DNA from: Sphagnum compactum
Lineage: Eukaryota
Direction of reading: 5' to 3'
NCBI GenBank assembly: GCA_965153455.1
Contig: OZ234493.1
Coordinates: 15,676,213 to 15,740,212, forward strand
DNA length: 64,000 nt
In this document: piece by piece, positions 8,862 through 56,357 of the stretch
How positions within the stretch are numbered: position 1 is the stretch's first letter
Layout: each line of letters opens with the position of its first letter
Translations under genes and position numbers: made by a program
The notes under the pieces: generated by a model
The model's database searches: none
What the model saw: only the letters and a program-made list of their open reading frames with translations
What the model was told of the DNA's origin: nothing

Positions 8862-10497
8862 CTAAGTAGTAAATCCCTTGCGCTTGAGGACCACAATTAG
8901 GAAAGTCGTCCTGCAAATCTTGTATTCTTGTTGGGCTTTAGGGTCAGAAAGGAGGGAGGTGGCACGAGCTGTTATGCGTCGATGGTAGCGAATGAAGAAC
9001 TCGTCGGTGTTGTGTCGGCCCAGGTGTGCCTCTATGCTCGGGCCAGTTATTGCCCTCACCCATGCGGACACAAACGTAGCAAAGGATTTGGGGAATTGTA
9101 GCATGTGCATCAACTCGTCATCAGGGCACAGGTTGTCGTCAACCGGCGATTGCAAATATTGGATGTCAAAGGCACCACACTTGATGATTGATGCCTCCAC
9201 CTCCTCCTTTGAGCGGGCATAGGTCGGGAGGTTAAATGTGTCTCTTGTCTCCGTAGTTATCACTCCCTGTGCTTGCAAACAATGGGGATCCCAAAATTAT
9301 GCAAAAGAATTAAAAGTGTCAATCTATTGACAACTTGAACAACACCATGAAATTTTAGTCTACAACTTTTAGAAGGATTGCACCTAGTCTTCCAGACCAA
9401 AGACAATGGCTTTCTAGTTTTGTTTCATCAAAAAAATTGGTTCACCGAGAGGATAGAGTATCGTGTTCTTTACATACATCGTCAATGAGGTCGTTCCAAG
9501 CGTTTTCGAAGTCAGTACCAAATACACAACGATGGTACCATTCAGGGTTGACTTGGTTTTCAGGGTTGGCTGCGTCATGGCGGCCAACGAAAGACGCGAA
9601 CAAAATACCACCAGGCACCATTTCGGCAGCACGACTGTCGAGAAAGTTGTCCAAGTCGAGCATGCTTTGTTGAGCAAACTCTCGTGCAATAGTAGGGTTG
9701 CCGCCAAGAATCCAAGGGCGGCCTTTGTTGTAAAGAGGAGAACTCTTATCTGTCACTGTTGCTGGTATCTACATGCACAACCAGCAATAGTAGTCCTGTG
9801 AATGACTAATTAATCAACACGATAAATGCGAAATTCATTAGTATTCAATTGGTGTAGATGTGCATGGTGATTTGATCTGAAAATGCATACTTAATGTAGT
9901 CATGTGTACATGAGCTAGCAATCTTCAAGAAGAAAAACATTAGATCAGACTAGTGGAGTAATTGAACACCAATCAATTTACCTGAGACATCCAGTGCAAG
10001 CAGAAGATCGATATTGCGAAATGGATGCTCTCCGTGGGCAACAAACGATTGTAGAATGATCCTCCCACCATTGCTGAGAAGTAACTGCTAGCTCTTCCAA
10101 CATCGGCGCCATTGATTGGTCTAGCTATATCCTTGGCGTTTTGGGCCTCTGATGCCAATAGTTGAATAAGGGTATTGAAATCATTCCCGGGCAAGTCGAT
10201 GAAGGAAACAAGCATCTCTGGCATGCAAGTGACATGACCATTATTTTCGCTAGTTTCGACGTACCTGTCAGTGATACACTTCACAATGAAGTTCATGTAA
10301 CTTATGGAGTTTCTCCCAGTGGAGCAACCGAAATCAGCAATATGCAAAGGACCTTGTTCCGGCAGACTCAGGTGCTTAACAGCTTCGGCCATGAAGGGCT
10401 CCAACCTCCTGCTTGCGTGTGCTTGTAGCACCCCATTCCGCTGGTAACTGAATTCCCCATCACCACCCACCGTAGAAATAAATTTCGCCTGCTCCAT
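8862..10497 (-). CDS. SABATH family SAM-dependent carboxyl methyltransferase, copy 1 (403 aa)
   Basis: Exons 10497-9982, 9768-9478 and 9266-8862 with GT-AG introns in phase. Motifs GGDGEFSY, IADFGCSTGRNS, DLPGNDFN, GSFYNRLLP, LHWMSQ/IP, FLDSRAAEMVPGG and DTFNLPTY. Confidence 0.93.
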
Positions 10498-11319
10498 GTC
10501 CTGCAAGATACTTTTCAATCACGAAACCCAAAGTTATGAATTAGACACACTTCCTCTGAGATACAGCACTGTAAACTAAGAGAGTCTTTCCTTAAATCTG
10601 CGGTCATGGTTTGCATCTTTCCTTAAAGATGCAATTATTTTGGTCATTAATGAAAGTAAATGATGTGATGTCATGTGTTTTAATATTTAATTACTTAAAA
10701 TATAGATATTGTTATTATTTTTGAAATAATTTGGGACATTCAATTCAAATGTTTAAATGATCTTATATTATGACACATGGCCCAATGTAAATAAATCATT
10801 TGGCACTTTAAAATGAATTTAATACAACATATTATATTTCGTTGGTAGGTACATGAGTAGATAGATGCCCACAAACTTAGGCTACATACCAACATACCTA
10901 TTTAGGTGAAAAGGTAATTAGGTAGGTTTTACTTTCTTAGACTAAATACCTATATATGTGTAGGTATTAAGTAGGTAGGTACATAAATAAACCTAGGTGG
11001 GTAGGTCAAACTACGTACATACTTAATTTAATAGGTAAATAAGTAGTTTGGGGACGTAGGTAGTTTATAACTGTGCATAATTTTTCTTTTCGTTTTGGGT
11101 TAAGGCTTTTGATTGGTTCATCCCATCTGCATAAACTTTTTAATGTGAAATTGGATGACCCCATCCCCTGTTTATATAATGTTCAAAATAGGAATGAACG
11201 ACAAACAATGTGGGATCAATAAATTTTGAAATTGCAATTTCCTCACAAACTAAGTTCTAATTCCAAAACTTTCCCCATGACTTTTGTTTTTAGTTTCTAG
11301 ATTTCTAAGCATTTCAAGT

Positions 11320-15162: not shown

Positions 15163-17590
15163 CACTATAAGAAAATGTGGGTTTTTAGAAAGCCAACTTG
15201 ATTGAAGTGTCCACATTGACCCACAGGTATGTCCATTTTGACTAAAGGTTTGGGGCATGAAAAACATATGTTACATTTGACTAAAGTGACCTTTTTGACC
15301 AAGTGTCAAGTCGAAAATCTAATCAAAATGGACAAATGTCCATCAAATTGGCCATATTGAATCGATAGGGTTTAGTCAAATTGACTATCTTGATTTAACC
15401 CTTAATCAAATTAATCATTATGATTTGACGCTTAGTTAAATGAACCATCTCATTTGATGACTTAACCTATTTGTTAAAACTAAGCTACCTACCTAATTTA
15501 ACATAACTAGTAGGTTAAGTTAGGCTTAGCTACCTTTCTAGACTAGCATAATTAATAGGCTAATAGGCTATTTGTTAAATAATAACCAAGCTAGTAGCCT
15601 AGCTAGATAGCCTAACATGAACCTATTTAGTAGGTTACCTAGGATGTAGCCTAGGATAAATTAAGTAGCCTATAACTAGTTAGTGTAACTTTTAAGTAGG
15701 TATTCTAGGTGACTTAGGCTTACTAGGTAGACTTATTAACCATGTAGGTAGCCTACTAGCCTAGGCCTATTATAGGTATGTAGCCTAGGTCTACTAGGTA
15801 AATAACATAGGCCACCTAGACTTAGTAAGTAGGTAGCCGATCCTACTAATTAGGTAAGTAGTTTAGGCCACCTAAGCTTACTAAATATAAGGTAGTTTAA
15901 CCTATGCTATGGAAGTCTACTTGGTAGCAACGTACATAACATAAGCCACTTAGGCCTATAAGGTAAGTAATTTAACCTAGGCCACTTAAGCCTATTAGGT
16001 ACGTATGTAGCTTAATTTAGGCCACCTAGGCCTACATGGTAGGTAGCTTAAATTAGGCCTATTAAGTAGGTACAAAGCCTACTAGGTTATTTAAGCCTAT
16101 TAAGTAGGTATGTTGCTTAACTTAGGTAGCCTAAATTAGTTTAAGCTAGGCCTACTAATTAGGTATGTAGGTTAACTTAGGCTATCTAGGTAGGTACATA
16201 GCTTAGGTAGCCTAGATTTAACCTAGGCCACTAGGTAGGTACATAGCCTAATTTAGGCTACCTAGGTAAATACATAACTTAAGTAGCCTAGGTTAGTGTA
16301 ACCTAAGCCTACTAGGTAAGTATGTAGCTTAATTTAAGCTACCTAGGTAGGTACATAATTAAGGTAGCCTAGGTACATAGCTTAACCTAAGCCTACTAAG
16401 TAGGTACATAGCTTAACCTAGGTTACTTAGGTAGGTACATAAGTTAGGTAGTTTAGGTTAACTTAACCTAAGCTTATTATGTAAATATGTAACATAACTT
16501 AGGCTACCTAGGTCATTTAGGCCTACTAGGTACGTATGTCACTAACCTAGGCTAATCCACTTAGGTTACTAGGTAGGTAGTTTAGCTTAATATTAGGTAG
16601 GTTACTTAACCCTAAACTTACTTAATAGGCTAGGCTATTTACTTAATATGTGTAAGTTACATTTATTAACTATAGGCTAGTAGGTACCTACATAGCCTAT
16701 TAAATAACATAGGCATAGGTAGGTATAAGCAAAGACTTAGTAGGTACTTATAAGGTTTAATAGATTATAACCTACATGTTACCTAAGTACATGCATTTAT
16801 TAATAGGTACCTCCTACCTACCCAGGTAACCCTACTTATAACCTAGCTATTTATGTAAGTAGTGTAAAAAGTTGAAGTTCATTTAATGTAATATGTTGAA
16901 AAAATTCATGGAAGTTGATTACAATATGTTAATCCAAAATCATGTTTATTACAATATGTTGTTAAAAAGAAATCACCTGATGGGTTGGTAGTGCAATGGT
17001 TAAGGACTTGATCCTCCAATGTGAAGGTGAGGAGTTAAAGTCCCCACACTTGCAACCTAGGCTACCTTGGCTACTTAGATGGCCTAATTCGGTAGCTTAA
17101 GTTGCAAAGTCTATTTAACCACCTAGCCTAGGCTACTTGGTTTAGCCTAGGGACTTGGCTTAACCTTAGTGGTTTGGTTTAGCCTAGGTGGTTAAATTAG
17201 GTGGCCTAGCCTAGGCCTAGGACATAAGGTTGGTAAGTAAATAAATAAGTTATTTTTGAAATTAATCATTAGGTTTATTAATTAGGTAGGTAGGGTAGAA
17301 TAGGGTAGGCAGGGTAATTAATTAATTAATATTTTCATATTAATTTTAAGTAAAATAATTTAAATAATATATATTTTTGGTTGTTGCCCAAATTATATTA
17401 TTGTCATGGTGGTTTAATAAAAAAATCCAATAAAAAAGACCAACCAAAAAGATCTAGCCAAAACGATTAGGTCTAAATCAACTTGTCCAAAATGACATTT
17501 TGGTCAAGTTGAACATGGAGGCAAAAAAACCACATGGGGGGTTTTTTTAACCAAAATTCTAGGTAAAAAAAATTGAGATTTGTTGTAGTG
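15163..17590. mobile_element. Non-autonomous CACTA (En/Spm) DNA transposon filled with TAGG/CCTA-rich low-complexity repeats
   Basis: Termini CACTATAAGAAAA...ATTTGTTGTAGTG with 3-bp flanks atc/att. Subterminal ttgac/gtcaa repeats. Interior 15480-17320 is taggcctaggtagc-type simple sequence with no ORF. Confidence 0.75.
16982..17056 (+). other. tRNA-like / SINE-head-like cassette (degenerate) inside the CACTA element
   Basis: A-box-like TAGTGCAATGG, degenerate B-box AGTTAAAGTCC, ggttg/caacc terminal pairing and a gtgagg/ccccac T-stem. Not a canonical cloverleaf. Confidence 0.45.
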
Positions 17591-18555
17591 ATTTAATAAC
17601 CATGTGGTTTCCATTGACATTGAAATGTCCAAAAATAGGTTAACAATGTAACATGGGTTTACATGTACGCACTGGTAAATAATACATTTCATTTAGGATT
17701 TTGTTTGGGCATCTTTGACAAAATGCTTATTGTTGGAAAAATAGAGCAAGCCTCTCTTAGTTTTGTTTCCTTTCTTTTAGTGGGAAGTGAAATTTGTGTT
17801 TGTATTAGTTGTTTAACACATTGTATGGTTACAAAGGCCATTAGCAGACATTTTAGAAGCTCATATAGAGAATATGCTTTCACACAAGAAAAAACAAAAT
17901 AAGAACAAGATTAAAATTGCCTAGAGGTTGGAGATAATATTTTTGCTATAGTGTTCGACCTATGCCTTTACATTTTGTTTTCTTTCTCCCCATGTTCGAA
18001 TATATAATTTTTTTTGCAAAATGGGACAATGATCTAGTCCTGAGTCTATTTTGAATGGTAATAATTAATATTTATTCTAATGTTCTTTAGGTTCATGGTG
18101 AATATTTTGTTTGTTGTGGTGTGTTAAAAGTAATAGGAGTTACCACCCCCATTCATGAAAATCCATTTTTTGCCTCTTACCTCCTTTTTGTGTAGGGTTG
18201 AACATGAAGACCACTCAATGTTCAATTTGCTTCTCATTTGAAACTTAGTGGGTGCATTTGGATCCACACTCCATGCATATCCCAGTCCTTTCTATGACTT
18301 GTGGCAAGAATGGTAAATACTTGGTAATGGTTCAAACTTACATCTAACATTATACATAATGTATGTTATTATCCTAGATCTTGGTGCCTAAATTTATATA
18401 CATTCTCTCTTGTACAAAACACCCTAGTTTATCAACACGAGGATTTTGGAGCACTAGAGTTTGGTTTTTGACCATCTATACACTTGTTGTACAAGATGTT
18501 GTACATCTTGTGCAATGAAAAGTAAGATATTTTCTTTTTGCAGTTGAAAAGTAAG

Positions 18556-18941
18556 TGTTATGGACCGAATTAGCGTGAAGCAAGGCAAGGAAACATGGCT
18601 ACAACCAAATGGAGAATTACAAGACAAGACAAGACAAGATATGGCAATACTGGAGAATTGAGAGCTTTATTGATCCATCAACTGGTGTTGGTCTGCTGGA
18701 GGGCTGTCCCCCAGACCATCTCCTTTTATAACCCTGAACCATCCTATCTTGAGATGCCGAGTCTGCACTGCTGCATGCTGCAACGCTGCCAGGTCTGCAC
18801 TGTTGCATGCTGCAACACTGCCAGGTCTGCACTGCTGCATGCTGCAATGCTGCCAGGTCTACACTGCTGCACTGCTGCAACGCTGAGACATGGCAGCACT
18901 ACTGGTCCCTGCTTTTGTGTTGTCGAATCCAGGCCATGACA
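18556..18941 (-). repeat. 3' LTR (386 bp) with TATA box, AATAAA and internal 32-bp tandem repeats
   Basis: TGTTATGG...CCATGACA on +. Unit ctgcactgctgcatgctgcaacgctgccaggt x~3.5. On the - strand TATAAAAG is followed by AATAAA. Confidence 0.92.
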
Positions 18942-21900
18942 TTATCCCCTCCTCAAGCGACATATTCCAGATGGAGCCGGTTTGTTAGGATACTGTTGGT
19001 GGAACTGATTAACTAAGTCTTGGGCATGAACTAGGTTTTCAGCAGGCTCCCAAGTAGCTTCAGAAGGAGGATAGCCTCGCCAAAAGACGAGGTACAGGAG
19101 CTTTCCACGAATCTTTTTGGAGTCCAGGACCTCCTGAACTTCAAACTCTTCTTGGCCTTCAATTTCGACTGGAGCTTGGGGTTCTCGATGACGTTCTGGG
19201 ATCTGGTTTTCATGATAGGGCTCAAGCAAGGAAACATGGAAAACATTGTGGATTTTGAACTGGGGTGGAAGCTCCAACTGGCAAACCACTAGACCAACAA
19301 GTTTGGCGATTTTGAAAGGTCCAAGGCGCTTGTAATCCAACTTGGCACATGGGCGAGTGGTAGCAATGTTCTTTCTGAGAAGCCAGACCTTGTCTCCAAC
19401 CTTGAAGTTTGGATGGTCCTTGCGTCGGCGGTCTGCTTGCTTCTTTTGCCACTCCTGTGTCAGCTTGAATTCTGCCATAAGGTTCTGTTGAACTTGTCCA
19501 AGCCTCGTGGCCCTTTCTTCAGCCGAGGGGTTTACCGAGTCCCCAGGAATTTCAAGGCTGAACTTGGGATGAAAGCCGTAATTGGCAAAGAACGGACTGA
19601 TACTGGTCGATGCATGGGTTGTGTTGTTATAAGCAAATTCTGCTTGAGATAGTAGGGCCAGCCAGTCGTCTTGTTGGTAGCTCACAATGCAGCAAAGGTA
19701 TTGCTCGAGTGTCTGGTTTGTCCGTTCGATTTGTCCATCTGTCTCGGGGTGAAAAGCTGAGGATAGCCGAATGTCAACTCCAAGGAGGTTGAATAGGCGC
19801 CGCCAGAACTTGGATGCAAATTGAAGACCTCTGTCGGACACAATTTCCTCGGGGAGTCCATGCAGTCGGACGATCCCGTCCAGAATTAATCGAATTGTCT
19901 CTTCTGCCGTGATTGACTTGGAACAAGGGGTGAAATGCGCCATTTTGGTGAGACGATCGACCACAACGAGTATTGAATTCTTGGCTTTGACAGTAGGGAG
20001 GTCCATGATGAAGTCCATTGCAATAGATCCCCAAGGTCGGCTAGGATTCGGCAGGGGCCGTAGGAGTCCAAACGGGCGATGCCTGGGAGCCTTGGATCGA
20101 GCACATGTATCACAAGTCTTGACATACTCTCGTAGCAGCCTGTTCATCTTGGGCCACCAATAATTCCTTGACACTAGTTCGTGAGTCCGTGCCATTCCGA
20201 AGTGACCGGCCAGGGTGTTATCGTGGCATTCTCTCAGGATCTTTAGGCGTATAGGTCCTTCGGGTACATAAATCAGGTTGTTTCGAAGGAGAAGTCCGTC
20301 TTGCTGCTCAAACTGATCCAGATCATCACGATTTTGGTTCCTTGGTCGTTCTTGGAGTTCCTTTTTGATGTTGGTAGCCCAAGTGTCTTCCTCAGTTGCC
20401 ATATTGATGTCCCTGACAAGGTATGAATCTGGGAGGGTGCTGATTGTTGCTGCAACTCGAAATTGCTCGGGCTTGAGTAAGGTCTGGGTCTGCTGGCCGT
20501 AGGCTTCATCCCCTGCTTGAAGTTCATATTCTGAGCGCCGAGATAGCGCGTCAGCTTTCCCTTGCTGGGTGCTGGGCTGATACTGAATCTCAAAGTCGAA
20601 ATCAGCTAGGAAGATAGACCAGCGTGCCTGGCGACGATTCAAGGTCCGAGTAGTTGTAAAATAGAGGAGATTCTTGTGATCTGTCAGAACTTGGACTCAA
20701 TGTTGAGCTCCGGCAAGATACGGTCTCCACTGCTCGAATGCCGTGATGATTGCCAGGAGTTCCTTATCGTAGACCTGGTAGTTGATTTCGGCACTGGTTA
20801 GCTTCCGTGAATAGAAAACAACTGGATGCAGCAACCCATCTATTCCAAATTGAGATAGGATAGCTCCCAAGGCAAAATCCGAAGCGTCCGTTTCCACAAT
20901 GAATGGCTTGGCAGGGTCGGGATGTATCAGGACTGGTGCAGAGGTGAATGCCATCTTGAGAGTATCAAAAGCAGCCTGGGCTGTTGGATTCCATGAGAAG
21001 GGCTTGTCTTTGCAAGTCAGGGCTGTTAACGGTGTTGTGATCTTGGAGTAGCCTTTGATAAACCGACAATAGAAGTTGGCAAACCCCAAGAAGCGTTGAA
21101 CGTCCTTGACCGAGGATGGAGTAGCCCAATACTAGATGGTCTCGACCTTTGACTTGTCCATGAAAATGCCATCTGGGGAGATCACGTAGCCTAGGAACGC
21201 CACTGAAAATTTGTCGAATTCACATTTTCTCAGCTTGGCGTATAAGCCATGCTCTCGGAGCGTCGCAAGCACCAATCGTACGTGTTTGTCGTGGTTTTCC
21301 TGGTTTTTGGAAAAGATTAAAATGTCATCCAAATAGACCACGACAAATTCGTCCATGTATTCCCGAAAGATATCATTCATCAGATGCTGAAAGACTGCAG
21401 GTGCATTGGTGAGGCCGAAGGGCATGACCGTGTATTCGAAGTGGCCGTAGCGTGTGCGGAAGGCTGTCTTCCACTCATCACCGGGGCGAATCCTGAGCAA
21501 GTTGTAGGCTCCACGGAGGTCAAGCTTGGTGAAGATCTTCTCGGTACGTAGCCGATCCAGGAGGCCTGAAATCAAGGGCAAGGGTTATCGATTCTTTTTG
21601 GTTATCTTGTTGAGTCCACGATAATCCACACAGAGTCGAAGAGAGCCATCCTTCTTCTTGACAAACAGAATTGGGGCGCCGGCTGGAGACTTGGAATGCT
21701 GGACGAACCCCTTGGCAAGGTTTTCAGTAAGATAATCAAGCAGGGCTTGGAGTTCCAGTTCCGATAGGCCATAGATAGGACCAAAGGGTGGTGAGTGTCC
21801 TTCCTCTAGATCAATCGGGCAGTCATATGGATGATGTTCAGGGAGCTGATCAGCCTTATTCTTTTCAAAAGCATCAACAAAGTCCTTGTACTTCTCGGGA

Positions 21901-22700
21901 AGTTTGACAAGTTTTGGTTCTGATTGGGGGTTTTGGTTGTTGGCTGGGTTGACATGGATGGCGAAGACTTGAAGATTCTTAACAGTTCGATAGAAAGGTA
22001 CAGCTCCATCAACGAATATCCGGACAGGGTTGGTTTTCTGGGCAGGATTCTCGACAAGATTTTTGACAGGACAAGGTTTAGTTCTGGCCACCGGGGGGTT
22101 CTTAACTGCAGGATTTGACAGAACAGACTTGACAAGACTGGAATTGGTTCCGACCCTCTTTGGGTTCTTGACCACAGGGTTCTTGGCAAGACTTGACAAA
22201 GTGTTTGTCTGAGCTTGGGGTGCTTGAGAGGTGCACCGTTGTGTGCTGAAGGTGAGGGTTCTAGATCGCCAATCGATGATAGGGTTGTGTGTTTCTAGCC
22301 AAGGCAGACCAAGGATGACGGGATGGTGAGGGGTGGAGATGATGTTGAGAACAATCTTTTCCGCGTGCTTGCCGATACAGAGTTTTAGAGGGGTTGTCTC
22401 GTGTGTGATTGCACCAGAAGCAATGGTTCTCCCATCAATAACCTCTACCGGAACAGGGGTTGACTTCTTGACTACAGGGATGTTGTGTTGGGCGACAAAT
22501 GTTTGGTCGATGAAAGAAGAGGTGGCGCCGGAGTCCACCAATGTTGATACTTGTGGTATTTCTTCTGGAATACGAATGATGTCCACATGCTGAGTGAAGT
22601 TGGGACTGGGACCAACGGCTGAACATGAGCCTTTGCAAAGGTGGTGCTAGGTGAGATCCAGTTGCACGGCTCCTACTGTGACTGGATGTTTTTGTTTTCC
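18942..22700 (-). pseudogene. pol: Retrotransposon pol (PR, RT, RNase H, integrase, chromodomain); several in-frame stops, no frameshifts
   Basis: LVDSGA protease, YLDD RT, ETDASD RNase H, HHCC + IVSDRG integrase, GPF motif, and EEFEVQEVLD...YLVFWRGY...TWEP chromodomain. ORFs 21585, 21132, 20697 and 18942 are all in one frame, separated by single stops. Confidence 0.93.
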
Positions 22701-23647
22701 AATTCTTGGGGAGTTTCCACAGCTTGCACTTGAAGTTTGACAAGCTTTTGGGGGCACTGGCGAGCTATGTGCCCTGGGTTGCCACAGTAGAGGCACAGGT
22801 TGTTTGTCCTTCGACGAAGTTTCTCGGCCTCTGTCAAAGGTTTGAACTTAGCTGCGTCGATCTGCATCGGGGCAGGTCCAAAAGAGGCAGGTCGGGCAAC
22901 TGGTGTTGTTTGGGGAACTAAGGGAAACGTAGTAAGGCGACTGTTCCAAAGCTGGGCGTTGGAGGTGACTTTCTTTTCCTGGCGACGTTCGAACAAACGA
23001 TTATCGCACCGAATTGCCTGGGTGATGGCTTCACTGAAGGAAGAAGGGTCTGCGAGTGTCAGTAAAAGATCTTGAACATCATCACGAAGCCCACAGCGAA
23101 ACTGATCAATCAAGGCAGCTTCTCCCTAGTTGACGTCGCAGGCAAGTTGCCTGAATTCTGAGGCGTAGACGATGGTCGAACGTGTCCTTTGCTGGAGGCG
23201 ACACAGCTTGTTGGCTGAAGTCCTGGCCTTGTCACTGTCCCCAAACACTGCTTCAAATTCCGCCATAAAGGCATTGAAATCTTGTAGGAGAGGGGATGAT
23301 GTTTCCAGGATGGGAGCAAACCATGCTGCAGCTGTCCCAGTGAGTAGGGTTCCAACGAATCCTACACGAGTGGTGTCATCCAAATAACGACGGGGGTGTA
23401 GTTGCATGATCAGGCGTACCTGGCTGACAAAGCCTTGAAATTTGGGGCGCGTTCCATCAAACTTTTTTGGCAGGCTGATCTTGGGCTCTGGGGTGACCAT
23501 TGCAAGGGCAGCGGGTACTGGGGCAGGAGGTTGTGGCTGATCCTGCATGCGGGTCACTGAGTCTCTAAGCGTGACATTTTCTTGTTGAAGGTGCTGAAGG
23601 GTGGCGAGGATTTGATTGAGGTCGATGTTTGATTCCGAGTTGTCCAT
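22673..23647 (-). pseudogene. gag: Retrotransposon gag with CCHC zinc knuckle; one in-frame stop
   Basis: MDNSESNIDL...PEPKISLPKKFDGTR...LLTGTAAAWF...CLYCGNPGHIARQC. TAG at 23126-23128 where Trp is expected. Confidence 0.9.
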
Positions 23648-24136
23648 GGTGGTAGTTATCAATGATAACGATGAAGTTGAAGGTTGCAGGAAAAATCGAT
23701 GGAGGAGTAGTGAGCAAGTCTAATCTTCCCGTAATCTCTCTCAACTCCTCACACAGTAGCTACAGCAGCTCCAATGGACCAAACCCATGTCTGTTTTCCG
23801 CCGACCCAGCTCCTATTTCCCCCTTCAGCTTGATGTTTGCTCAGAAAATGCTGAAAGAACCTCTCTGTCCTGGTCTTGGTCTGTGTCTGGACTTCTAGGT
23901 CCTCCCCCTGCTCCCAAAAAGGTTGGCTCTTCAAAGACAAGTCTGCTGATGAGTTGCAAACACACACTTTCTCGAATTTTATTTTATTTTATTTTTTTGG
24001 TTTTGGGAAACTTGTGTTGGAAACTGAAACAAGTTTTTTCCACCTATCTTTTCAAAGAAGTTAAGTTTTTGCTGTTGTTGTCGCTGCTGCTAATGTTGTT
24101 TAGTCTCGCATGTAACAAGATCTGCAAAAAAACAGT

Positions 24137-24390
24137 TTGGTCTGCTGGAGGGCTGTCCCCCAGACCATCTCCTTTTATAACCCTGAACCATCCTATCTTG
24201 AGATGCCGAGTCTGCATTGCTGCATGCTGCAAGGCTGCCAGGTCTGCACTGCTGCATGCTGCAACACTGCCAGGTCTACACTGCTGCATGCTGCAATGCT
24301 GCCAGGTCTGCACTGCTGCACTGCTGCAACGCTGAGACATGGCAGCACTACTGGTCCTTGCTTTTGTGTTGTCGAATCCAGGCCATGACA
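24137..24390 (-). repeat. 5' LTR, truncated to 254 bp
   Basis: Matches 18688-18941 with 6 substitutions by manual count. The remaining 132 bp of the 3' LTR (18556-18687) has no counterpart. Confidence 0.9.
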
Positions 24391-25544
24391 GTAAGAGGTG
24401 CATGTCTTTTCCAGTCCATGTCAAATCATTAAGGGTGTCTCTTTTACAATTTCATGTTATACCCTTGGTGCTAATTGACTGCTAGTATTGGGTGTCTATC
24501 AAGTATTCAATGCTCGTCATTTTCTTTAAAAATGTTTAGGGTCTTTAGAATAGGTCTCATGTAGAGGATTATTTCCCAATTCAAATTCCACCTTGATTTC
24601 ATTTTCAAGACCCAAATTTTTTTCATTAAGAAGATGAAATGCACTATGCTTCCAAGGTTGCTTCTCAAGGGCGTTGTTGTGAATTGGTTGGTTGTGATAC
24701 CTTGGCTTCTTATAGGCTTGAGAGGTCTAGGTTTCTTGCTGACTGACATTGTTGTTTTTTCTTGACCATACACATGGTGTTGGTTATCAGTAACTAGGAA
24801 TGTGAGAAAATGTTACAGAAGAAACCGAAAGAGTTAATTTCAAATTTAGAGGACTAGTAAACAAAAATAAACACACTAATGAAAACTAGTGCAGTCATGT
24901 CATTATGGCCACCATCATGAATGGTAATGATAATCTACCATTATTTCCCACTAACTAGTCATCTCTGAAATTATGGATCAATCTTTCAATGATCCATTTC
25001 CTATGTTCCATATAAAAATGTCCATGATGGGTGAAGTGAAGATGGATTTACAAGGTGATGGGTTGCTATTGGGAAAAAACTTCCCTTTCTGAATAACATG
25101 AAAAAGGCACCCACAGCTAGATCCATATTTATACCCATTGAGTTTTATTTCTATTATCATGGTTTTCATAATCAATTTAAATTGAACATTGGAATATAAT
25201 TGATAGGAAGGGGTTTGCCAAAACTAGCATGCTTCCATACAACATGCAAAACAAGCTGGCTTTTTATCCCTCTTTCCTTTTCTCTCTGTAGCCTCCCTCT
25301 TTATTCATCCCCCTACTCAAATTTGCAAGAAAAATCACAATAGGAGTATCTAAATCCACAAAAGTTTAAATCCTTGTCTCTTCCTCCTCCTCACCAATGT
25401 AGGGAAGATGAATGCACAAAAACTAAAAACATTTTGGAAAGAAAAAAATCAACAATGTGTCTTTTCATATGCAATTCAATCAAAGGTGTATTTTCCTATC
25501 TAAAAAAATTAAGGGGCACAAATATACATGGTTTGAAGCCGTAG

Positions 25545-27487: not shown

Positions 27488-29152
27488 TTAGGTACTAAGT
27501 ACTTTGCGCTTGAGGACCACAAGGAGGAGACTCGTACTGAAAATCTTGTATTCTTGTTGGGCTTTAGGGTCGGAAAGGAGGGAGGTGACACGAGCTGTTA
27601 TGCATCGCTGGTAGCGAACGTAGAATTCGTCGGTGTTGTGTCGGCCCATGTGTGCCTCCATGATGGGGCCAAGCATCGCCCTCACCCATGCAGACAAAAA
27701 TGTAGCGAAGGATTTGGGGAATTGTAGCATGTGCATTAGTTCGTCCTGAGGGCAGATGCTGTAGTCATCCCACAATTGCAAATATTGGATGTCAAAGGCA
27801 CCACACTTGATGATTGATGCCTCCACCTCCTCCTTTGAACGGCGATACATGGGGACGTTAAATGTGTCTCTTGTTTCAACAGTTATCACTCCCTGTGCGT
27901 GCAAACAACCATGATCCAGAAAGATGTAAAAGATTTGAATTGTCAATCTATTGAGAACTTGAACAACACGATGGATTTTTAGTCTGCAACTTTTTTGAAA
28001 GATTGCACCTTGTCTTGCAAGGCAGAGACAATGACTTTCTACTTGTGTTTCATCAAAAAATTGGTTCACCAAGAGCATAGAGTATTGTGTTCTTTACATA
28101 CGTCGTCAATGAGGTTGTTCCAAGCATTTTCGAAGTCAGAACCAACAAAACAGCAATGGTGACATTCGGGGTTGGTTTGGTTTTCAGGGTTGGCTGGGTC
28201 CTGACGGCTAGTGAAGTACGCGAACACGATACCACCAGGTGCCATTTCAACAGCACGACTACTGAGAAAGTTGTCCAAGTCAAGCATGCTTTGTTGAGCA
28301 AACTCTCGTGCAATAGTAGGGTTGCTACCAAGAATCCAAGAGCGGCCTTTGTTGTAAAGTGGAGAATTCGGATCTGTCAGTGCTGCTGGTATCTGCGTGC
28401 ACAACCAACAAGAGTAGTCTCGTCAATGATTTATTAATCACCATGACGATTGTGAAATTTGTTAATATTCAATTGGTGTAGATGTGCATGGTGAATTGAT
28501 CTAAAAATTCATATTTCTAAATAGTCCTATGTACATGAGTTAACAATCTTCAAGACGCAAAACATTGGATCAGAATGGTGGAGTAATTGAACATCAATCA
28601 ATCTACCTGAGACATCCAGTGCAAGGAAAACGTGGATATTACGAAATGCATGCTCTCCTTGGGCAACAAACGGTTGTAGAATGATCCTCCCATCATTGCT
28701 GAGAAGTAGTTGCGAGCTCTTCCAACATTGGCGCCATTGACCGATCCAGCTAAATCCTTGGCATTTTTGGCCTCTGACGCCAATAGCTGAACAAGGTTAT
28801 TGAAATCATTCCCAGGCAAGTCCATGAAGGAAACAAGCATCTCCGGCATGCAAGTGACATGACCATTATTTTCGCTAGCGTCGAGGTACTTATCAATGAT
28901 GCACTTCACAATGAAGTTCACGTAACTTATGGAGTTTCTCCCAGTGGAGCAACCGAAATCAGCAATATGCAAAGGACCTTGTTTCGGCAGACTCATCTGC
29001 TTAACAGCTTCGGCCATTAACGGCTCCAACGTCTTGATTGAAGATGCTTGTAGCACCCCCATCCGCTGGTAACTGAATTCTCCATCACCACCCACCATGG
29101 AAATAATTTTCCCCAGCTTCACGTCGGTCACCTGCATTCCCGATTCCACCAT
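27488..29152 (-). CDS. SABATH family SAM-dependent carboxyl methyltransferase, copy 2 (413 aa)
   Basis: Exons 29152-28607, 28392-28102 and 27892-27488. Same motifs and intron positions as copy 1; frame intact. Confidence 0.93.
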
Positions 29153-30524
29153 TGCTGTAAATCCAAGATACGTTTCAATCACGAAAACAAAATAAAATAA
29201 GAATTATACACACTTCCTTTAAGATACACCACTTGTAAACTAAGAGAGTCTTTCCCTAAATCTTCACGGTCATGTAGTACTACTCTGCTTCAGGACTCGT
29301 GTTTTTCCTGTTACAAAACACAAAAGACTGCTGTACAAATACAAGAACGGCCCCTTTCTCTCTCTCTTTCTTTCTTTCACTTCCTCAACTCGGCTGCTGT
29401 GGGCACTGGGTACTGCTTATATCTTTCGTAAACTCAAGGAATTTTTTATACTACATTGGTGGTGTGAATGGGTGCACATTTGTTGGGGGCAGGGGAGGCG
29501 CCATAATACATCACTAGTAATTACTCCATCTTCTTTAAGAGAAAGATGGATGGGGCCAAGAGTAGATAATCAAAAGCAATTATACAATTCAAATACACCC
29601 ATGTGCACATGTAAGATTGGCCACTAAACACGATGATGATGATACTAAAATTATCTGTAAAGTCATGCCCTGTCGGGCCTGAGTTGCACCCCCCATTTTA
29701 ATGCTTGATCCCCCATTTCCTGGTTGTTATCCACAAATCCATCAAATTTTATTGGCTTTACCTACCAAGGCGAGGATATTGTGTCGCGATTCATTATAGA
29801 GTATAGTAGCTTAAGGGATGTTGGCCCATACTAGGTAACAGGTCTATTTTTATATGAGAATTATTCAAAGATTATATGTTGGCTTGTATTGAAAGTTAAG
29901 ATTAATTGCACAGTTATAATGTCATGAATGATTTTGGTTTCTTTTAGAGGATTTTTTGAAGATTATATTTTTGCATGGTGAAATATTTGAGTTTTCATCA
30001 TTCTACTGTTGCCTTAAGATACCTTTTAATGTAAATGGCAAGGCCACAGTGTGACTGATCCCTTGTTTAAATAAAGGTATGAAATACTGAGACTCAGCAT
30101 TAAATGCACCAGGCTCCAGAACATTTATAGTTACAGTACACATAGCAGCAGCAGTGATTGCTTGAAGGCGTTCAGGAAAAGAAAGGACAGTGCAAACTCA
30201 GTTGAGCACCAAATTTGCTCCTAAACTGAGTTTCATGCCCGGTTAAAGCCCAGTGTAGTTTTTTTCCCCTTGTTTTTTGAAATCTATCCCCTATGTGACT
30301 AAACAGGGGGTTCCGGTGCCGTCTTTTCCTTACTTTACGATTAACTTTACTATGACCCCAAATTTCTGCCCTTGCCATTAGCCCAGGCCAAAAATTGGTG
30401 ACCAACAGTTTTGGAAAGAGAAATTTCATGCAGCTAATGGGAAGGCTCAGCATGCACTCACAACCGGGCCTATTTTTTCCTTCTGGGGGTGGGTTTGGGT
30501 GGCGGAAGTTATTGTTTTGTTTTT

Positions 30525-34327: not shown

Positions 34328-36465
34328 ATGGCCGAGAGGGCGTGCACCGTGCGAACACGCAAGTTCATGACCAACCGGCTGCTAGCCCGCAAGCAGTTTG
34401 TAAGTGACTCCTTGTAGCCCTTTCCGTTTTGTGTTGTTTTCTTCCTCCATAGAGAACAATGGTGATGGCCGTTACTCGCAAGTTTGTGGCGGGCGATGTT
34501 ATGGAAGTATGGGTACTCTTCAAAGTTTGTGACGGGCGATGTGATGGAAAGATGGCTAGTCTTCGAGTTTGTGGCGGGCGATGCGATGGAAGTATGGCTA
34601 CTTTGGGAGCTTTCGGAATAAAAGGAAATGGGGGAGAAGCCACCTGCTAGGTCCTTTGATCTTCGGGGTCGACCTTAGTGGCTGGTTTTGCTACAAGCTC
34701 GTGCACGTAGGCGGATGACTCTGACTGAGAGGAGAGCTATACTGTTGGTGATTCTTTGGGGAAAAAAAGTGTTTTCTTTTAATTGTGTGAGTTTCTCAGC
34801 GTAGAAACACTTATTAGTTTCAACTTGTAGAATACGACATTCATGAATTACAATTGGGAATGAAAATAGAGCGTTAAGAGAACATCGTGCCACTCCTTTT
34901 GTCCTTGAGGACCATCTTACAAATTTATTGTTTTGGCTGTGTTATTGTGAGGATGGATATATTGGGATTATGTACTGGAAAGTGCCTCATTTCTGGTTGG
35001 GGGAAGTTTTGAAGATGGTGTCTTGGCTCTGCAGGTCATTGATGTTCTTCATCCTGGCCGAGCCAATGTCTCAAAGGTGCGAATGTTTCAGCTGAAAATG
35101 AAATGTATTTTTCATCTAGAATTATTGTGTCTCCAGCTGAGCTTGACGAGCCTGGTGTGTTCTAGTTCTATTGGACATCCAGTCAACTAGAAGACTGGAG
35201 CAGGCTTTTGCTGGGATTAGGGCTGTCGAAGACTTCTCACCTTTGCCACCAGTCACTTCGAGATTGAGCCAAACTGAGTGGAAGTCCCTTGCCATTGCAT
35301 GTGATTAGAATTGTGGTCACTTGTCAATTTACTCTTCTGTAGCACACAACTTCCAAGGTTCAAATTATGCAAAAGCAGTGAACTCCAGGGTTTTTAGTTT
35401 CTTTTGCAGATGAATATATTGGTGTGCTTCTGTGTTCTTTTGGAGTGGCTTTGTTGTTGATAAAGTGGAAAAAAATACTCAACTTAATGTACAGGCAGAG
35501 CTGAAGGAGAAGCTTTCGAAGGTTTATGATGTGCGGGATCCTCAATCCATTTTTGTCTTCGGCTTCCGGACTCAGTTTGGAGGTGGCAAGTCAACTGGAT
35601 TCGGCCTAATCTATGACAGTGTTGATGCTGCGAAGAAATTTGAGCCCAAATATCGACTCATCCGAGTATGTTTGTTTCTGCCTCTTGCTTCTTCTAGACT
35701 ATTGCTGCAGACTAGTTGAGGGGAGCTTACATGGATTCACAAGGTACATGAGCTGAAGATGTGTAATTCTCAGTGGACACTGTACTACTTCTCATGTCCT
35801 GCCACAGTGATCGTTCGCTACTCCTGTAACTACACCATTGTCTGGTGACAGTGTGCCCCGGCTTATCTGATTCCTTGGTTTCTTCTGTGTTAATGAAGTT
35901 TGCCTGGGTCATGTGCAGAATGGTTTGGCAACAAAGGTGGAGAAATCAAGGAAGCAAATGAAGGAACGGAAAAACAGGGCCAAGAAGATCAGAGGTGTCA
36001 AGAAGGTAATGGTTCTCTCCCTCCCCCTACCCGCCCATTTTATGTATTGTGTTTACCCTCTAATTCCTAGTGTCATTGAGGTTTGAGAACAGAGTATTTT
36101 CCTATAGACAGTTTCTATAAGTACATGAATGATTAATATGAGTGGTTCCACTTAGCCCTGATATTATGCATCATTTGATTTGAGCTTTGAGTTTTGAGGC
36201 AGTTATTCAAGGAGACTATCCTCATTCCAGATATTAAGATATTTGCATTGATGATTGTTGCTCTCGACACATTAGAGAATCCTTTCAGTTTGATTGAATG
36301 TTGACTACTTCTCGACCTCATGGTCTTTTCATATTGATCCTCTACTTTGAAGGTTGCTTAGGTATAAACTTTGCAAGTGTTGTTCAATCTGGAAATTTCA
36401 TATTTTTTGTCTTCTTTCTTTTTGTGCAGACAAAGGCTTCAGATGCAGCAAAGAAGAAGAAGTAA
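34328..36465 (+). CDS. RPS24: 40S ribosomal protein S24 (eS24), 135 aa
   Basis: Exons 34328-34399, 35035-35076, 35495-35665, 35919-36005 and 36430-36465 read [45 protein letters not shown]...[14 protein letters not shown]...[40 protein letters not shown]. Confidence 0.97.
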
Positions 36466-48200: not shown

Positions 48201-51200
48201 ATGTCGGATTTGGATAGGCAGATAGAACAGCTGAAGCGCTGTGAGCCACTCAAAGAATCAGAAGTTAAAGCTCTATGCCTTAAGGCAATAGAGATTCTTG
48301 TGGAGGAGAGCAATGTGCAGAGAGTTGATGCACCAGTGACTGTAAGTTTTTTCTTTTTCCTTCCACTCCAGGTCCACCTCTTTCTCTCTGACAGAAGTGG
48401 ATAGCTCTAGATGTTCATTGCCAACAAATTTACCAGACAAGCTCAGACTCATGTTATCAGATACTGTAATGAAAGGATTTCACTTGATATGCACGGACAC
48501 TGGTTACACCTTGCCATGTTCACTGGTGGATATGGAGGTATCCTGTTGGAACCAAGAAAGGGGAATGTGCTTGTTATCTGTCTTATTCACTGTGATTGGG
48601 TAGAGTCTTGTTATCAATCCACTTCCATGCTAGGCAGCCTGCATACATGAATGTTAACAAGGGCTGACTGATTTTGAGAGAACATGTGTTGTATATAATA
48701 TTTCTTTTCCTTGTTTTTGGTTTCAATGGGCCTTCTTTCCAGTGCTTTGTTTAGAAAGAACATATGGAGAGTTGTGATCACTACTGATGGGCATAAAATT
48801 TTCTTGTAGAGTATGGAGAAATGTTTGTTTGATTGCAATCACTGGGGGGTCAATCCTGGAGCAATACAGGTTAGAGCTTATGTTTTGTCATGGTTTTCTG
48901 CAGTTATGTGGTGATATTCATGGGCAATTCTATGACCTAAAAGAGCTTTTCAGGGTGGGAGGAGATTGCCCTCAAACCAATTACTTGTTTCTAGGTGACT
49001 TTGTCGACAGAGGGTTTTATTCAGTGGAGACATTCTTGTTATTGCTTGCCCTCAAGGTACTGCTGTCCTATTTGTTTTTCAGTCTGCCTCACTATTGTCT
49101 TCTTATGCTCTCTTGATCAACGTTTCTGTCAAAGTTTCATTATGGAGTTTCCTCTGCAATCTCAGAGGTTTGTTACTTTTGATCATCTCACTGAACTACA
49201 TTACATTCGATGGTAGTGCAATAGTGTGACAGTACTTGGCAGGCAGTGTTACTCCACAATTATGTGACAATATGTTATTCCATGTCCTACTTGAAAGGTT
49301 TTCATTGTCATGTTGTGGGAGATTTGTGGATGAATCGCTGGATCTGAACACATAATGTCCTTGCAGTTTGTGCAAATATTTCTCAGTCTTGTTGACAATT
49401 GCTTGGGCCATTATTGGCTTCTGTGTTGTTGATGCAGGTGCGATATCCAGACCGAATAACACTTATTCGTGGCAATCATGAGAGTCGTCAAATTACTCAG
49501 GTATTTCACAATATTGGTTTATAGTGTTTAGCCATCTGGTGTCGTGGATGGTGTTTCAAGTGTGCTTCTGAAGTTTCAGTTCATGTAATGTATGAGGGAT
49601 TTTGTAATCCACAAAGAGTGCAGCAGAGGTTCAATCAGCAATGCTATTGGTAGATTATTTCAGATTACCAGTATCGGTAGCACTATTATTTTTTTCTGTA
49701 GCTTGTTTAATAGGGATTACTTGCATCAGTTGCTCATGAGAAAACACTCTGGCAGGTGTATGGTTTTTATGATGAGTGCCTACGGAAGTATGGTTCAGTT
49801 AATGTGTGGCGGTACTGTACTGACATCTTTGATTATTTAAGGTTTGCAAATTTCCTCTCACATTCTTCAGACTTGTGAATGGTGTTTTCAAGGACAGTCA
49901 CATTGCAGATACAACAAGAGAAGTTTTGTGCATTGGTTGTTGGCTGTTGTGAGGTTTTTTGGTAATTCATTAAGTTCATTGTAAGGTCAGAAGTTTCAAA
50001 CTAACCCAGTCTACTTGACTTGTGAGTCACATTAATGGGTTTTTTTGTTGCCTGTGTGGGCAGTCTTTCTGCACTGATCGACAACCGCATTTTTAGTGTT
50101 CATGGCGGTCTTTCTCCCTCCATAACAACCTTGGATCAGGTGTGATTGTTATTGAGGTTTGGGATGTTGGACACTGTTTCCTTTGCCGCTGCAATATTAT
50201 TATGTACACTCATAATTAGATTCTACAATACCTTTGCTTTCATGCTCTCAGCTTGGATTTCACTTCCACCTTTCTGCTCTCTGAAAGATGTGTTGCTGGC
50301 TCTTCATGACAGTTGTTACAAGAAACCACATTTGGTTTCTCAATCTCTTGAATCCTCTTTTCTGCAGATGTGTGGGTTGGGAGTTGTGTAGATGATGGTG
50401 TATGCAAGTGCCTAGTTTGATAATTGACCTGATAGGTTGATTCATGGCAATCTCCATCACTTTATAGCACTGTCTTACAATACATATATCGATAAATAGT
50501 TGAAAAAGAGGCTCCATGTTGGGATGGCAAAGGTTTTAACAGAGGTTTTATAGATGTGTGCACAGGCACAGTTAGATTAGAGCACCTTCACCTTGCACCT
50601 TCACATGGACTAACTGAAGGTTTTGGTGAAGCAGATCAGGACAATTGATCGAAAGCAAGAAGTGCCCCACGATGGGGCCATGTGTGACCTTTTGTGGTCA
50701 GATCCCGAAGAGATAGAGGGTTGGGGGGTGAGTCCACGAGGAGCAGGCTATTTATTTGGGGGCAATGTTGCAACTACATTCAACCACAAGAACAACATAG
50801 AAACAATCTGTCGTGCACATCAACTGGTAATGGAAGGTTATAAGTGGATGTTCAACAATCAAGTTGTTACTGTTTGGTCAGCTCCAAATTATTGCTACAG
50901 GTAATATTGCACAGACTCAGGACTCTCACTGAAGATCACATTTTCAGTTCTTTCACTTTCTCAGTCAGAGGTGATACTGGTTTTGCTTGTGACGTCAAGA
51001 TTATCACAAATGGAGTATGACATGCTTTCTGAGACCCCTGAAGTTGAGAGATCTGTCTGTACTCAAAAACATAAACATTTGATTCCACAATTGTATCATT
51101 TATGAATGTAGGTGGCACATGTCATCATTGATAGGTGATATGTGTCATATGTGTCATTTGTGAATGCTGTTCTTGAGAATGCTCTAAAGACACATTCTCA

Positions 51201-54693: not shown

Positions 54694-56357
54694 ATGCAGC
54701 AGGTACTTCTCGTCTTCCCATTATTGTCTCCCAAATTTCCTTCTTTTTGTTGAACTAACCATGAGAGATATAGTAGAGTTGCTGCTGCTGGGAAAAAAAG
54801 GTTTAGGGTTTCGAATTTCGCATTTTGTGTGGAGAAGTTGTGAACGGTTTTGTTGTAGTCTAGTTTTTGCGATTGGAATGCATTTCTTTGTACTCTTTTT
54901 TCTTGGCTTCTTCTTCTTGTCTACAAAGACGACGACTGGGTCAACGATTGGCTCCATAATAAATGGAAGCAAGGTTTAGGGTTTGGTTTTTCTTAACGGG
55001 GACGGAGACTTGAATCGTGACACAGTAATCTTTCTTTTGATGTTGTTGATCCTGAAAAATTTCTCTTCTCCTTGATTGTAGATGTTCAAGAATCCTCAAA
55101 AATTCAGCAAAGCTTTCTCTTGTGAGTGTGGAGGGATTAGGGTTCTTAGGGTTTTTCTGATTGGGACATTAATCTGTTCCAAGTGTTCCTTGTTTTGAGA
55201 GTTGTGATTCACACAATGCTAGCTAGTGCCTTCCATTCCTTTACAATTTGTATAGCTCTGGGGATTTGTGATAATTGCTGTAACTCAGGGGAAAAGAGTG
55301 ATGTGTGGGGAGATATAACTGTGATCTTTTTCTAACACTTTTTTCTGAGTCAATTGACATTTTCTAATGTATACTTGGAACTATGCTTTTGGTGCCAGGG
55401 AGATGGAGTGGAGACAGAAGTGACATGGGAGGATCAACAAAACATTAACTTGTTTGGCCGTCTCAACAACAAGTTTCATGAACTTGAAGATGAGATCAAG
55501 GCAACAAAGGTACAGTTTTCTATGATTCCATACTGAGGTTGTGGGCATTGGACCAAAGGTGAGAACATGTTTTGCATGTATTAAGCCAGCACACAATGGA
55601 ATGAAGTTCTTAACCTAGCCTGAGCTGAATTATTGGAGAGATGTTTTATCAGCACTCTATGTACTTCTTCCTCAATGATATTCTTTTTAATACTCCCCAA
55701 TTGTTGGGAGTTTCTTCCTTCTTTGGGCATGGGTTGACCACTTGCTTGACACATCTAAAAAGTTACAGGAAGCTTGTGAAGATCTTCTGTTTCTTGGCTT
55801 TGAACCTGCTGATAATGACCTGCAACATATTGGAAAGGAGGAGAAAGGTTTTTTTTTCCATTTGTTTGCTTGCATGTGCAATGTGCAAATGAATGCTTAT
55901 GGTTGCTTGATATGACCAGGATATGGCAGAAAATCTTGAAGATGCAAGCAATGAGCTCATTCTGGCAGATGAGGAAGAAGTGAGGTATCAGGTTGGTGAG
56001 GTGTTCAGCCATATGCCCAAAGAGGAGGTGCGTTTGTTTTGCAAGCTGAAAAGATTTGAGCAGCTTGCCATGACTGTGGCTGATTTCAATAAACACATAT
56101 CTGTTCATAGACATGTGGAGTATCTATTAAAACTTTGCAATATTTTTGTGGTTGTAGATACGTATTCATTGATCTTTGTGCTCTTATGCATCTGGAATTG
56201 GCAGGTTGAGGAAAGACTAGAAACTTTGAAAGAAGAGAACACCCAAGAGCTTGAGAAACTGTGCAAGGAGAAGGACAGTGTGCTGGGCAAAATGGCAGAC
56301 CTTAAGAAAATTTTGTATGGCAAGTTCAATGATTCAATTAACCTTGAAGAGGCATAA
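54694..56357 (+). CDS. PFD4: Prefoldin subunit 4, 126 aa
   Basis: Exons 54694-54702 (MQQ), 55399-55509, 55920-56027 and 56205-56357 read [17 protein letters not shown]...[26 protein letters not shown]...[18 protein letters not shown]. Confidence 0.95.

Follow-up and report, generated by a model that had tools for sequence, protein, structure and literature searches.

An old chromovirus copy with a truncated 5' LTR, probably damaged by a one-off rearrangement after integration

The window analysed in this work, a stretch of DNA of 64 kb, harbors an LTR retrotransposon of 5,835 bp on its minus strand (18556-24390). The element is flanked by two genes for SABATH (PF03492) SAM-dependent carboxyl methyltransferases, tandem paralogues with three exon-like ORFs each (8865-10518 and 27491-29203, both on the minus strand) that lie about 18.7 kb apart. 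These genes are the chief indication that the host is a plant. Just upstream of the insertion site, an AT-rich degenerate tandem-repeat array (15808-17300) is made up of TAGGTAGCCTAGG-like units with periods of ~81 and 165 bp and contains many internal inverted repeats. Further exon-like ORFs on the plus strand encode ribosomal protein S24e (35414-35716), calcineurin-like phosphoesterase (48778-49113) and prefoldin (55911-56354) domains and look like ordinary host genes; a Pfam search of the GC-richer stretches at 34-44 kb gave no match. A second gypsy-like element of a different family, much more degraded, is present at ~59240-61590 on the plus strand, where an RT-like stretch (61032-61586) shares 68% DNA identity with 21157-21713 and a weak gag-like match is found near 59239-59340. 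Rfam families and tRNA-like sequences are absent from the entire window.

The minus-strand element is bounded by a perfect target-site duplication, GTAAG, which we read directly at 18551-18555 next to the 3' LTR and at 24391-24395 next to the 5' LTR, flush with both ends of the element as originally described. The 3' LTR (18556-18941) is complete with U3, R and U5, comprises 386 bp and has TG...CA termini that form terminal inverted repeats, starting with TGTCATGGCC and ending with GGTCCATAACA; antisense ORFs of six other LTR copies align over its full length. It is adjoined by a purine-rich polypurine tract (18945-18959; context CGCTTGAGGAGGGGATAA followed by TGTCATGG) which overlaps the last codons of pol, the pol stop codon at 18942-18944 being located between tract and LTR. 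According to Pfam, the pol frame (18942-22646) encodes protease, reverse transcriptase (RT), RNase H, integrase, an SH3_Tf2-1 domain and a chromodomain, while gag (22673-23647) provides a capsid and a CCHC knuckle. On the minus strand the domains follow each other in the order PF19259/PF03732, PF00098, PF08284, PF00078 (7.8e-32), PF17919 (2.2e-37), PF17921, PF00665, PF24626 and PF00385 (3.6e-16), that is gag-PR-RT-RNase H-IN with a C-terminal chromodomain, and the element is thus a chromovirus, as had been proposed. Its gag and pol lie in different reading frames, for which a programmed frameshift or an indel in this copy may be responsible; Tf1 itself has a single ORF.

This copy is old, dead and has been decaying for a long time. 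The gag frame is interrupted by a premature TAG (23126-23128), and pol carries in-frame TAA (21585-21587), TAG (21132-21134) and TGA (20697-20699) codons. An alternative genetic code is ruled out by the presence of all three stop codons. The LTRs have diverged by 2.4%. With four premature stops and no recognizable primer binding site (PBS) the copy cannot be a working template.

The LTRs of the element are asymmetric. Both blastn and a repeat finder agree that only 18688-18941 and 24137-24390 are shared, namely 254 of the 386 bp with 97.6% identity, six substitutions (five transitions and one transversion) and a K2P distance of 0.024. The initial annotation had this correct, together with the position of the break: within the LTR, the TATA box TATAAAAG begins at position 212 and the shared sequence stops at position 254, which is 35 nt past the box and 43 nt from its start, near the predicted transcription start site. 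The element possesses two TG...CA LTRs, a 5-bp target-site duplication and a polypurine tract, the 5' LTR consisting of the first 254 bp only, i.e. of U3 with the TATA box and ~11 nt past the predicted start (24137-24390). What the 5' LTR lacks is R after about nt 11 and U5. In the 3' LTR these correspond to the 132 bp at 18556-18687, which contain AATAAA and the U5 end, as the initial annotation had stated, and which do not occur a second time within the 64-kb window. The DNA that takes their place does not represent a diverged R/U5 either, since its similarity to the missing 132 bp does not exceed that of shuffled sequences (Smith-Waterman score 16 versus 16.7 +/- 2.5, with 202 of 300 shuffles reaching or exceeding the observed score). 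Within U3, a 32-bp tandem repeat is present in 3.9 copies with about 90% matches (18761-18885 in the 3' LTR and 24210-24334 in the 5' LTR). Two of the six LTR differences, at 18829 and 18861, are spaced by exactly one 32-bp unit, as if units had been exchanged.

Other copies of the family are known here from predicted ORFs in protein collections. As queries we used accidental ORFs that cross the junctions of interest, because gene callers are expected to predict the same ORFs in other copies. The copies used for comparison reside at other loci or in other genomes: the ORFs of the window are not among the collections, and the best integrase match is 92%. One such query, the plus-strand ORF 23760-24332 (191 aa), begins in the leader, crosses the insert and ends in U3; among 348 candidates it gave 14 matches. 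Six of them are antisense ORFs of other LTRs (P0127-P0131 and P0134) and eight are copies of the insert (P0121-P0126, P0132 and P0133). All six LTR-derived ORFs align across 18687/18688, i.e. across the normal junction of U3 with R/U5, P0131 being 95.7% identical over 18595-18870, and their match to the 5' LTR of our element begins exactly at 24137/24138. Conversely, none of the 14 matches spans the junction between U3 and the insert; alignments of P0127 and P0131 that reach 24075 do so via CTG-rich low-complexity sequence and were counted as compositional and not as homology. The structure at this site is therefore normal in every other LTR sampled. The family copies sampled have LTRs of the normal, symmetric type, as judged from their predicted ORFs, and the asymmetry is seen at this locus only. 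A build with asymmetric LTRs throughout the family, which the initial annotation had contemplated, is contradicted by this result.

The DNA inserted between U3 and gag had been described as host-like, resembling a 5'UTR or an intron. Our searches, two in number with one reading frame each, point to a dispersed repeat instead. The eight insert copies named above match the plus strand from ~23700-23734 to ~23990 with 72-89% amino acid identity in a non-coding frame, and a further search of 50%-identity representatives with the plus-strand ORF 23656-23895 yielded two matches, P0255 and P0256, both of which are copies of the same module. With at least ten related ORFs at other loci a single-copy host gene or transcript is not found as its source, and a Pfam domain or gene name is assigned to none of these ORFs. 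On the evidence of these translated matches, the insert is repeated sequence and not captured host gene DNA. Within the 64-kb window, k-mer and blastn comparisons found only low-complexity matches of the (AAAAT)n type and hence no local template for the insert, and an exact 27-mer from the module had no match in bacterial and archaeal genome contigs. The possibility of a nested element, for which own termini and a target-site duplication would be expected, was also pursued; neither terminal repeats nor a duplication were found around 23734-24136.

The module, here termed Y, extends over roughly 400 bp (~23734-24134). Its inner part (23734-23970) recurs in all ten related ORFs of other loci, where its orientation with respect to the leader is the same (tblastn, 72-89% amino acid identity). 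The homology in these copies passes unbroken through 23774|23775, the position that had been taken for the inner edge of the insert, down to ~23734 and in P0255 even to 23671. This position is consequently not a junction, and the sequences ggtccat and tggagctgctg to which significance had been attached lie within the repeat. The outer part (23971-24136) consists of an A/T-rich linker (~23971-23993) and a segment X of ~140 bp (~23994-24134) with a T7 run and an A-rich run at its borders. Eight copies extend past 23990, seven from the search with the insert-U3 ORF plus P0256. Six of them (P0121, P0122, P0123, P0124, P0126 and P0132) match the minus strand, from ~24131 down to ~23963-23994, with scores of 57-183 as compared to 22-34 for the plus strand; the result for P0256 is marginal (minus 55 versus plus 43), and P0125 gives no clear strand. 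With six clear cases and one marginal case out of eight, X is, by these alignments, inverted in the window relative to most other copies.

Between Y and gag lies the gag-proximal leader (23648-23733). Its part from 23671 to 23733 is common to P0255 and not to copies of the type designated group 1. P0255 aligns continuously over 23671-23946 with 85% identity, and position 23671 is 24 nt away from the gag ATG; there is thus at least one further copy in which module Y adjoins the gag-proximal leader. P0255 represents one cluster only and may derive from the same locus of a related genome or from a duplicate of that locus. P0256 is of the group 1 type: its homology begins at 23734 and its gag-side flank is different. 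This flank is common to six Y copies (P0121-P0124, P0133 and P0256) and matches neither the gag of the window nor the leader of the sister subfamily introduced below. When the flank was back-translated and compared by log-odds scores with the sister leader, the gag and leader of the window, and R/U5, none of the scores exceeded those of shuffled sequences (positive control 247 versus 16.6). Past X, the same copies continue into sequence absent from the window. A purine-rich tail beyond X that resembles the polypurine tract and LTR start of this element was considered in other copies as well; the resemblance was weak, came from back-translation only and was dropped. The Y copy P0125 and the normal LTR P0129 are each listed with a longest contig of 13,382 bp, and from this equality of length the two may lie together on one contig.

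With gag as the query, 317 relatives were retrieved at E <= 1e-5; for the 120 of them that were listed, identities are 73-91%. Of these 120, 70 have the gag methionine as their first residue, another 36 lack part of the N-terminus, and the remaining 14 reach further upstream. All but one of the extended ORFs (13 of 14) belong to a sister subfamily, which is characterized by an LQNQPP motif and accounts for 75 of the 120 relatives listed. The leader of this subfamily matches the window below ~23665-23675 and has no counterpart in the window above that position; the DNA differing from the leader of other family copies reaches ~23665-23735. The fourteenth extended ORF, P0148, stems from the subfamily of the copy studied here (MQDQPQ motif, 13 of the 120 listed) and extends by five residues, which match. 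The family comprises two or more gag subfamilies (MQDQPQPP and LQNQPPPP) whose sequences immediately upstream of gag are unrelated, which suggests a modular exchange of the 5' leader between subfamilies. In bacterial and archaeal genome contigs, a gag-alignment search gave 16 pattern matches, none of which was confirmed.

In this copy, the 5' LTR is not directly followed by a PBS: there is no U5 end, no tRNA-gene candidate in the window, and no complementarity between LTR and leader above chance. The PBS is hence missing from this copy but not necessarily from the family. Several short sequence echoes had been put forward, and all of them turned out to be at chance level. The GGTCCAT echo consists of seven nucleotides out of the final 11 nt of U5, and a 7-mer of this origin is present in the region in 148 of 2000 dinucleotide shuffles. 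The longest perfect complement between LTR and leader measures 8 nt, and at least 8 nt are reached in 113 of 300 shuffles. For the supposed complement of the transcript start, gapped alignment of TATA+20..+60 with the 5' region gives a best complementarity score of 18 as compared to 14.9 +/- 2.2, and 64 of 500 shuffles equal or exceed this value; the underlying imperfect self-priming match, TTGGAGCTGCTG versus the complement of CAGCAGACCAA, is located inside the repeated module. If transcription started at the C of CAGCAG (TATA+33), a start site that is predicted, the breakpoint would lie 11 nt into R. In Tf1, the self-primer has a length of 11 nt, and a self-priming element would cut its RNA primer at that point.

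We consider it most probable, with a likelihood of roughly two in three, that the element is an old and dead member of a large chromovirus family, and that the 5' end of this copy was damaged by a one-off rearrangement at the DNA level after integration. The event would have eliminated the remainder of R, the entire U5, the PBS and probably some of the adjoining leader, and U3 plus ~11 nt would have been left joined to the roughly 400-bp module Y. In its course the outer 140 bp, X, would have been flipped, and the inversion of X between T7 and A-rich runs points to illegitimate recombination of the inversion-plus-deletion type. Small deletions by illegitimate recombination are described as a fate of plant LTR elements (PMC1940013). 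The timing after integration and the order of steps are what we infer from this arrangement. An intact 5' LTR-PBS-leader region of this subfamily was never seen, and the comparison rests on ORFs of other copies; the deletion is therefore deduced and not observed. The initial annotation had offered post-insertion repair with filler DNA as one of its options; a singular event after insertion indeed fits best, the filler from a host gene having to give way to deletion and inversion beside repeat or leader DNA. Some observations do not sit easily with our interpretation. The 13 clearly extended gag ORFs all belong to the sister subfamily, with a different leader to which nothing in the window corresponds. 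In addition, the breakpoint ~11 nt past the predicted start coincides with a would-be primer cut, a coincidence that our interpretation leaves to chance.

As to the origin of Y, we lean towards the 5' untranslated leader of the element's own subfamily and take a piece of some other repeat, inserted or copied in, to be the less likely source. The event remains one-off whether Y is own leader or foreign fragment. According to this less likely explanation, R-U5-PBS and the greater part of the leader, as far as ~23671, gave way to a fragment of another repeat or transposable element, or to filler from break repair; the weight given to it is a share of the interpretation preferred above, with which it overlaps, both invoking a one-off event after insertion. 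It would account for the gag-side flank that six Y copies share and that is unrelated to this gag, for the continuation of these copies past X into sequence absent from the window, and for the different leader of the sister-subfamily gag copies. The same flank counts against a derivation of Y from the element's own leader. On the other hand, Y is contiguous with this copy's gag-proximal leader (23671-23733) in P0255, the boundary of a foreign insert would need to coincide with the start of homology to the family leader, one contig of 13,382 bp probably bears both a Y copy and a normal LTR, and the fragment has neither termini nor a target-site duplication of its own.

It is improbable, in our view, that the element was already asymmetric when it was integrated. 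In this scenario an aberrant plus-strand transfer or template switch in a self-priming element of the Tf1/Tcn1 type would have joined U3 and ~11 nt of R to a site in the internal leader, possibly by a switch onto the co-packaged RNA of a related subfamily, and the intact outer ends would have permitted normal integration with a perfect duplication. Target-site duplication and both outer termini are in fact perfect, and identity ends 43 nt from the start of the TATA box, which equals 11 nt into R if transcription starts at CAGCAG; this start, however, is only predicted and was chosen to fit. Tcn1-clade plant chromoviruses are predicted to self-prime (PMC6317226), and the origin of complex plant elements has been proposed to involve template switches of the reverse transcriptase (PMC1950507). 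Nevertheless, the standard template for plus-strand strong-stop DNA has no discontinuity at nt 11/12 of R, so that a stop at this point has no specific reason. The inversion of X is left unexplained by a simple switch from one sense RNA to another, the complementarity between start region and 5' region does not rise above chance (64 of 500 shuffles), and the insertion of truncated copies is noted by Vitte et al. as not described before (PMC1940013). A more pointed version, to which we give still less credence, would see the copy as the fossil of a failed reverse transcription, the cDNA having lost R from nt 12 to its end, U5 and the PBS exactly at the self-primer cut and having integrated all the same. 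If so, the element would record a weak point of the self-priming mechanism, and one would expect further copies in the genome that break at LTR position 254 and continue into different internal sites.

An assembly artefact, by which reads of different family copies were mis-joined at 24137, is very unlikely. The large size of the family (317 gag relatives) and the repetitive nature of both U3 and Y would invite such chimeras, but the two LTR halves differ at six of 254 sites and carry the same 5-bp duplication at both ends, as expected for one insertion, and a mis-join would more likely have broken the pairing of LTRs and duplication. Least credible of all are a non-standard mode of replication common to the family and the capture of a host mRNA by transduction where transcription begins. 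All that speaks for them is that the breakpoint lies close to the predicted start site; against them, all six other LTRs have the normal junction and none of the 14 matches is chimeric, the insert is a multi-copy repeat with homology running through the supposed U5/PBS edge and contiguous with the element's own leader in P0255, the supposed U5/PBS echoes are at chance level, and a copy with four premature stops and without a recognizable PBS cannot serve as a template.

The biological weight of the one-off rearrangement favored here is small, as a decayed and rearranged copy between tandem SABATH genes is expected debris. Mechanistic interest would arise only if truncation at the presumed primer-cleavage site recurred. 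Pipelines for LTR-based dating and annotation would mis-handle a copy of this kind, in which 254 of 386 bases pair and the apparent leader and PBS are repeat DNA.

With respect to known systems, the family appears to be a large Tf1/Sushi-like chromovirus family of the Tcn1 type, residing in a plant-like genome, with leader modules that differ between subfamilies. It shares with the Tcn1 clade and the Tf1-Sushi chromoviruses (Ty3/gypsy, Metaviridae) the order gag (Ty3 capsid, CCHC), protease, RT, RNase H, integrase, SH3_Tf2-1 and chromodomain. The nearest named relatives of its integrase stem from fungi, an amoeba and vertebrates (43-49% identity), and together with the SH3_Tf2-1 domain they hint, indirectly, at a place in the Tcn1 clade. 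The self-priming PBS that defines this group is not demonstrable in the present copy because the normal U5-PBS region is missing here. In host-gene transduction by LTR retrotransposons, as exemplified by maize Bs1, non-element DNA is likewise found between the LTRs. The insert described here differs in that no host gene was found in it, in that its relatives are unannotated repeat ORFs and in that the module adjoins the same leader elsewhere. Some resemblance exists to the complex LTR elements attributed to template switching (Sabot and Schulman, 2007; PMC1950507), which, as portrayed there, also combine a single duplication with a structure that is abnormal for reverse transcription. Those elements are fusions of two parents that share an LTR and thus have three LTRs, whereas our element has two, one of them truncated, and no second internal domain. 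A further counterpart is provided by the plant LTR copies shaped by illegitimate recombination (Vitte et al., 2007; PMC1940013), which, to the extent that they are characterized in that account, are similarly old and point-mutated, have lost internal sequence while retaining outer ends and duplication, and belong to families with other members intact at the site; in the element studied here, the loss is combined with the inversion of a 140-bp segment.
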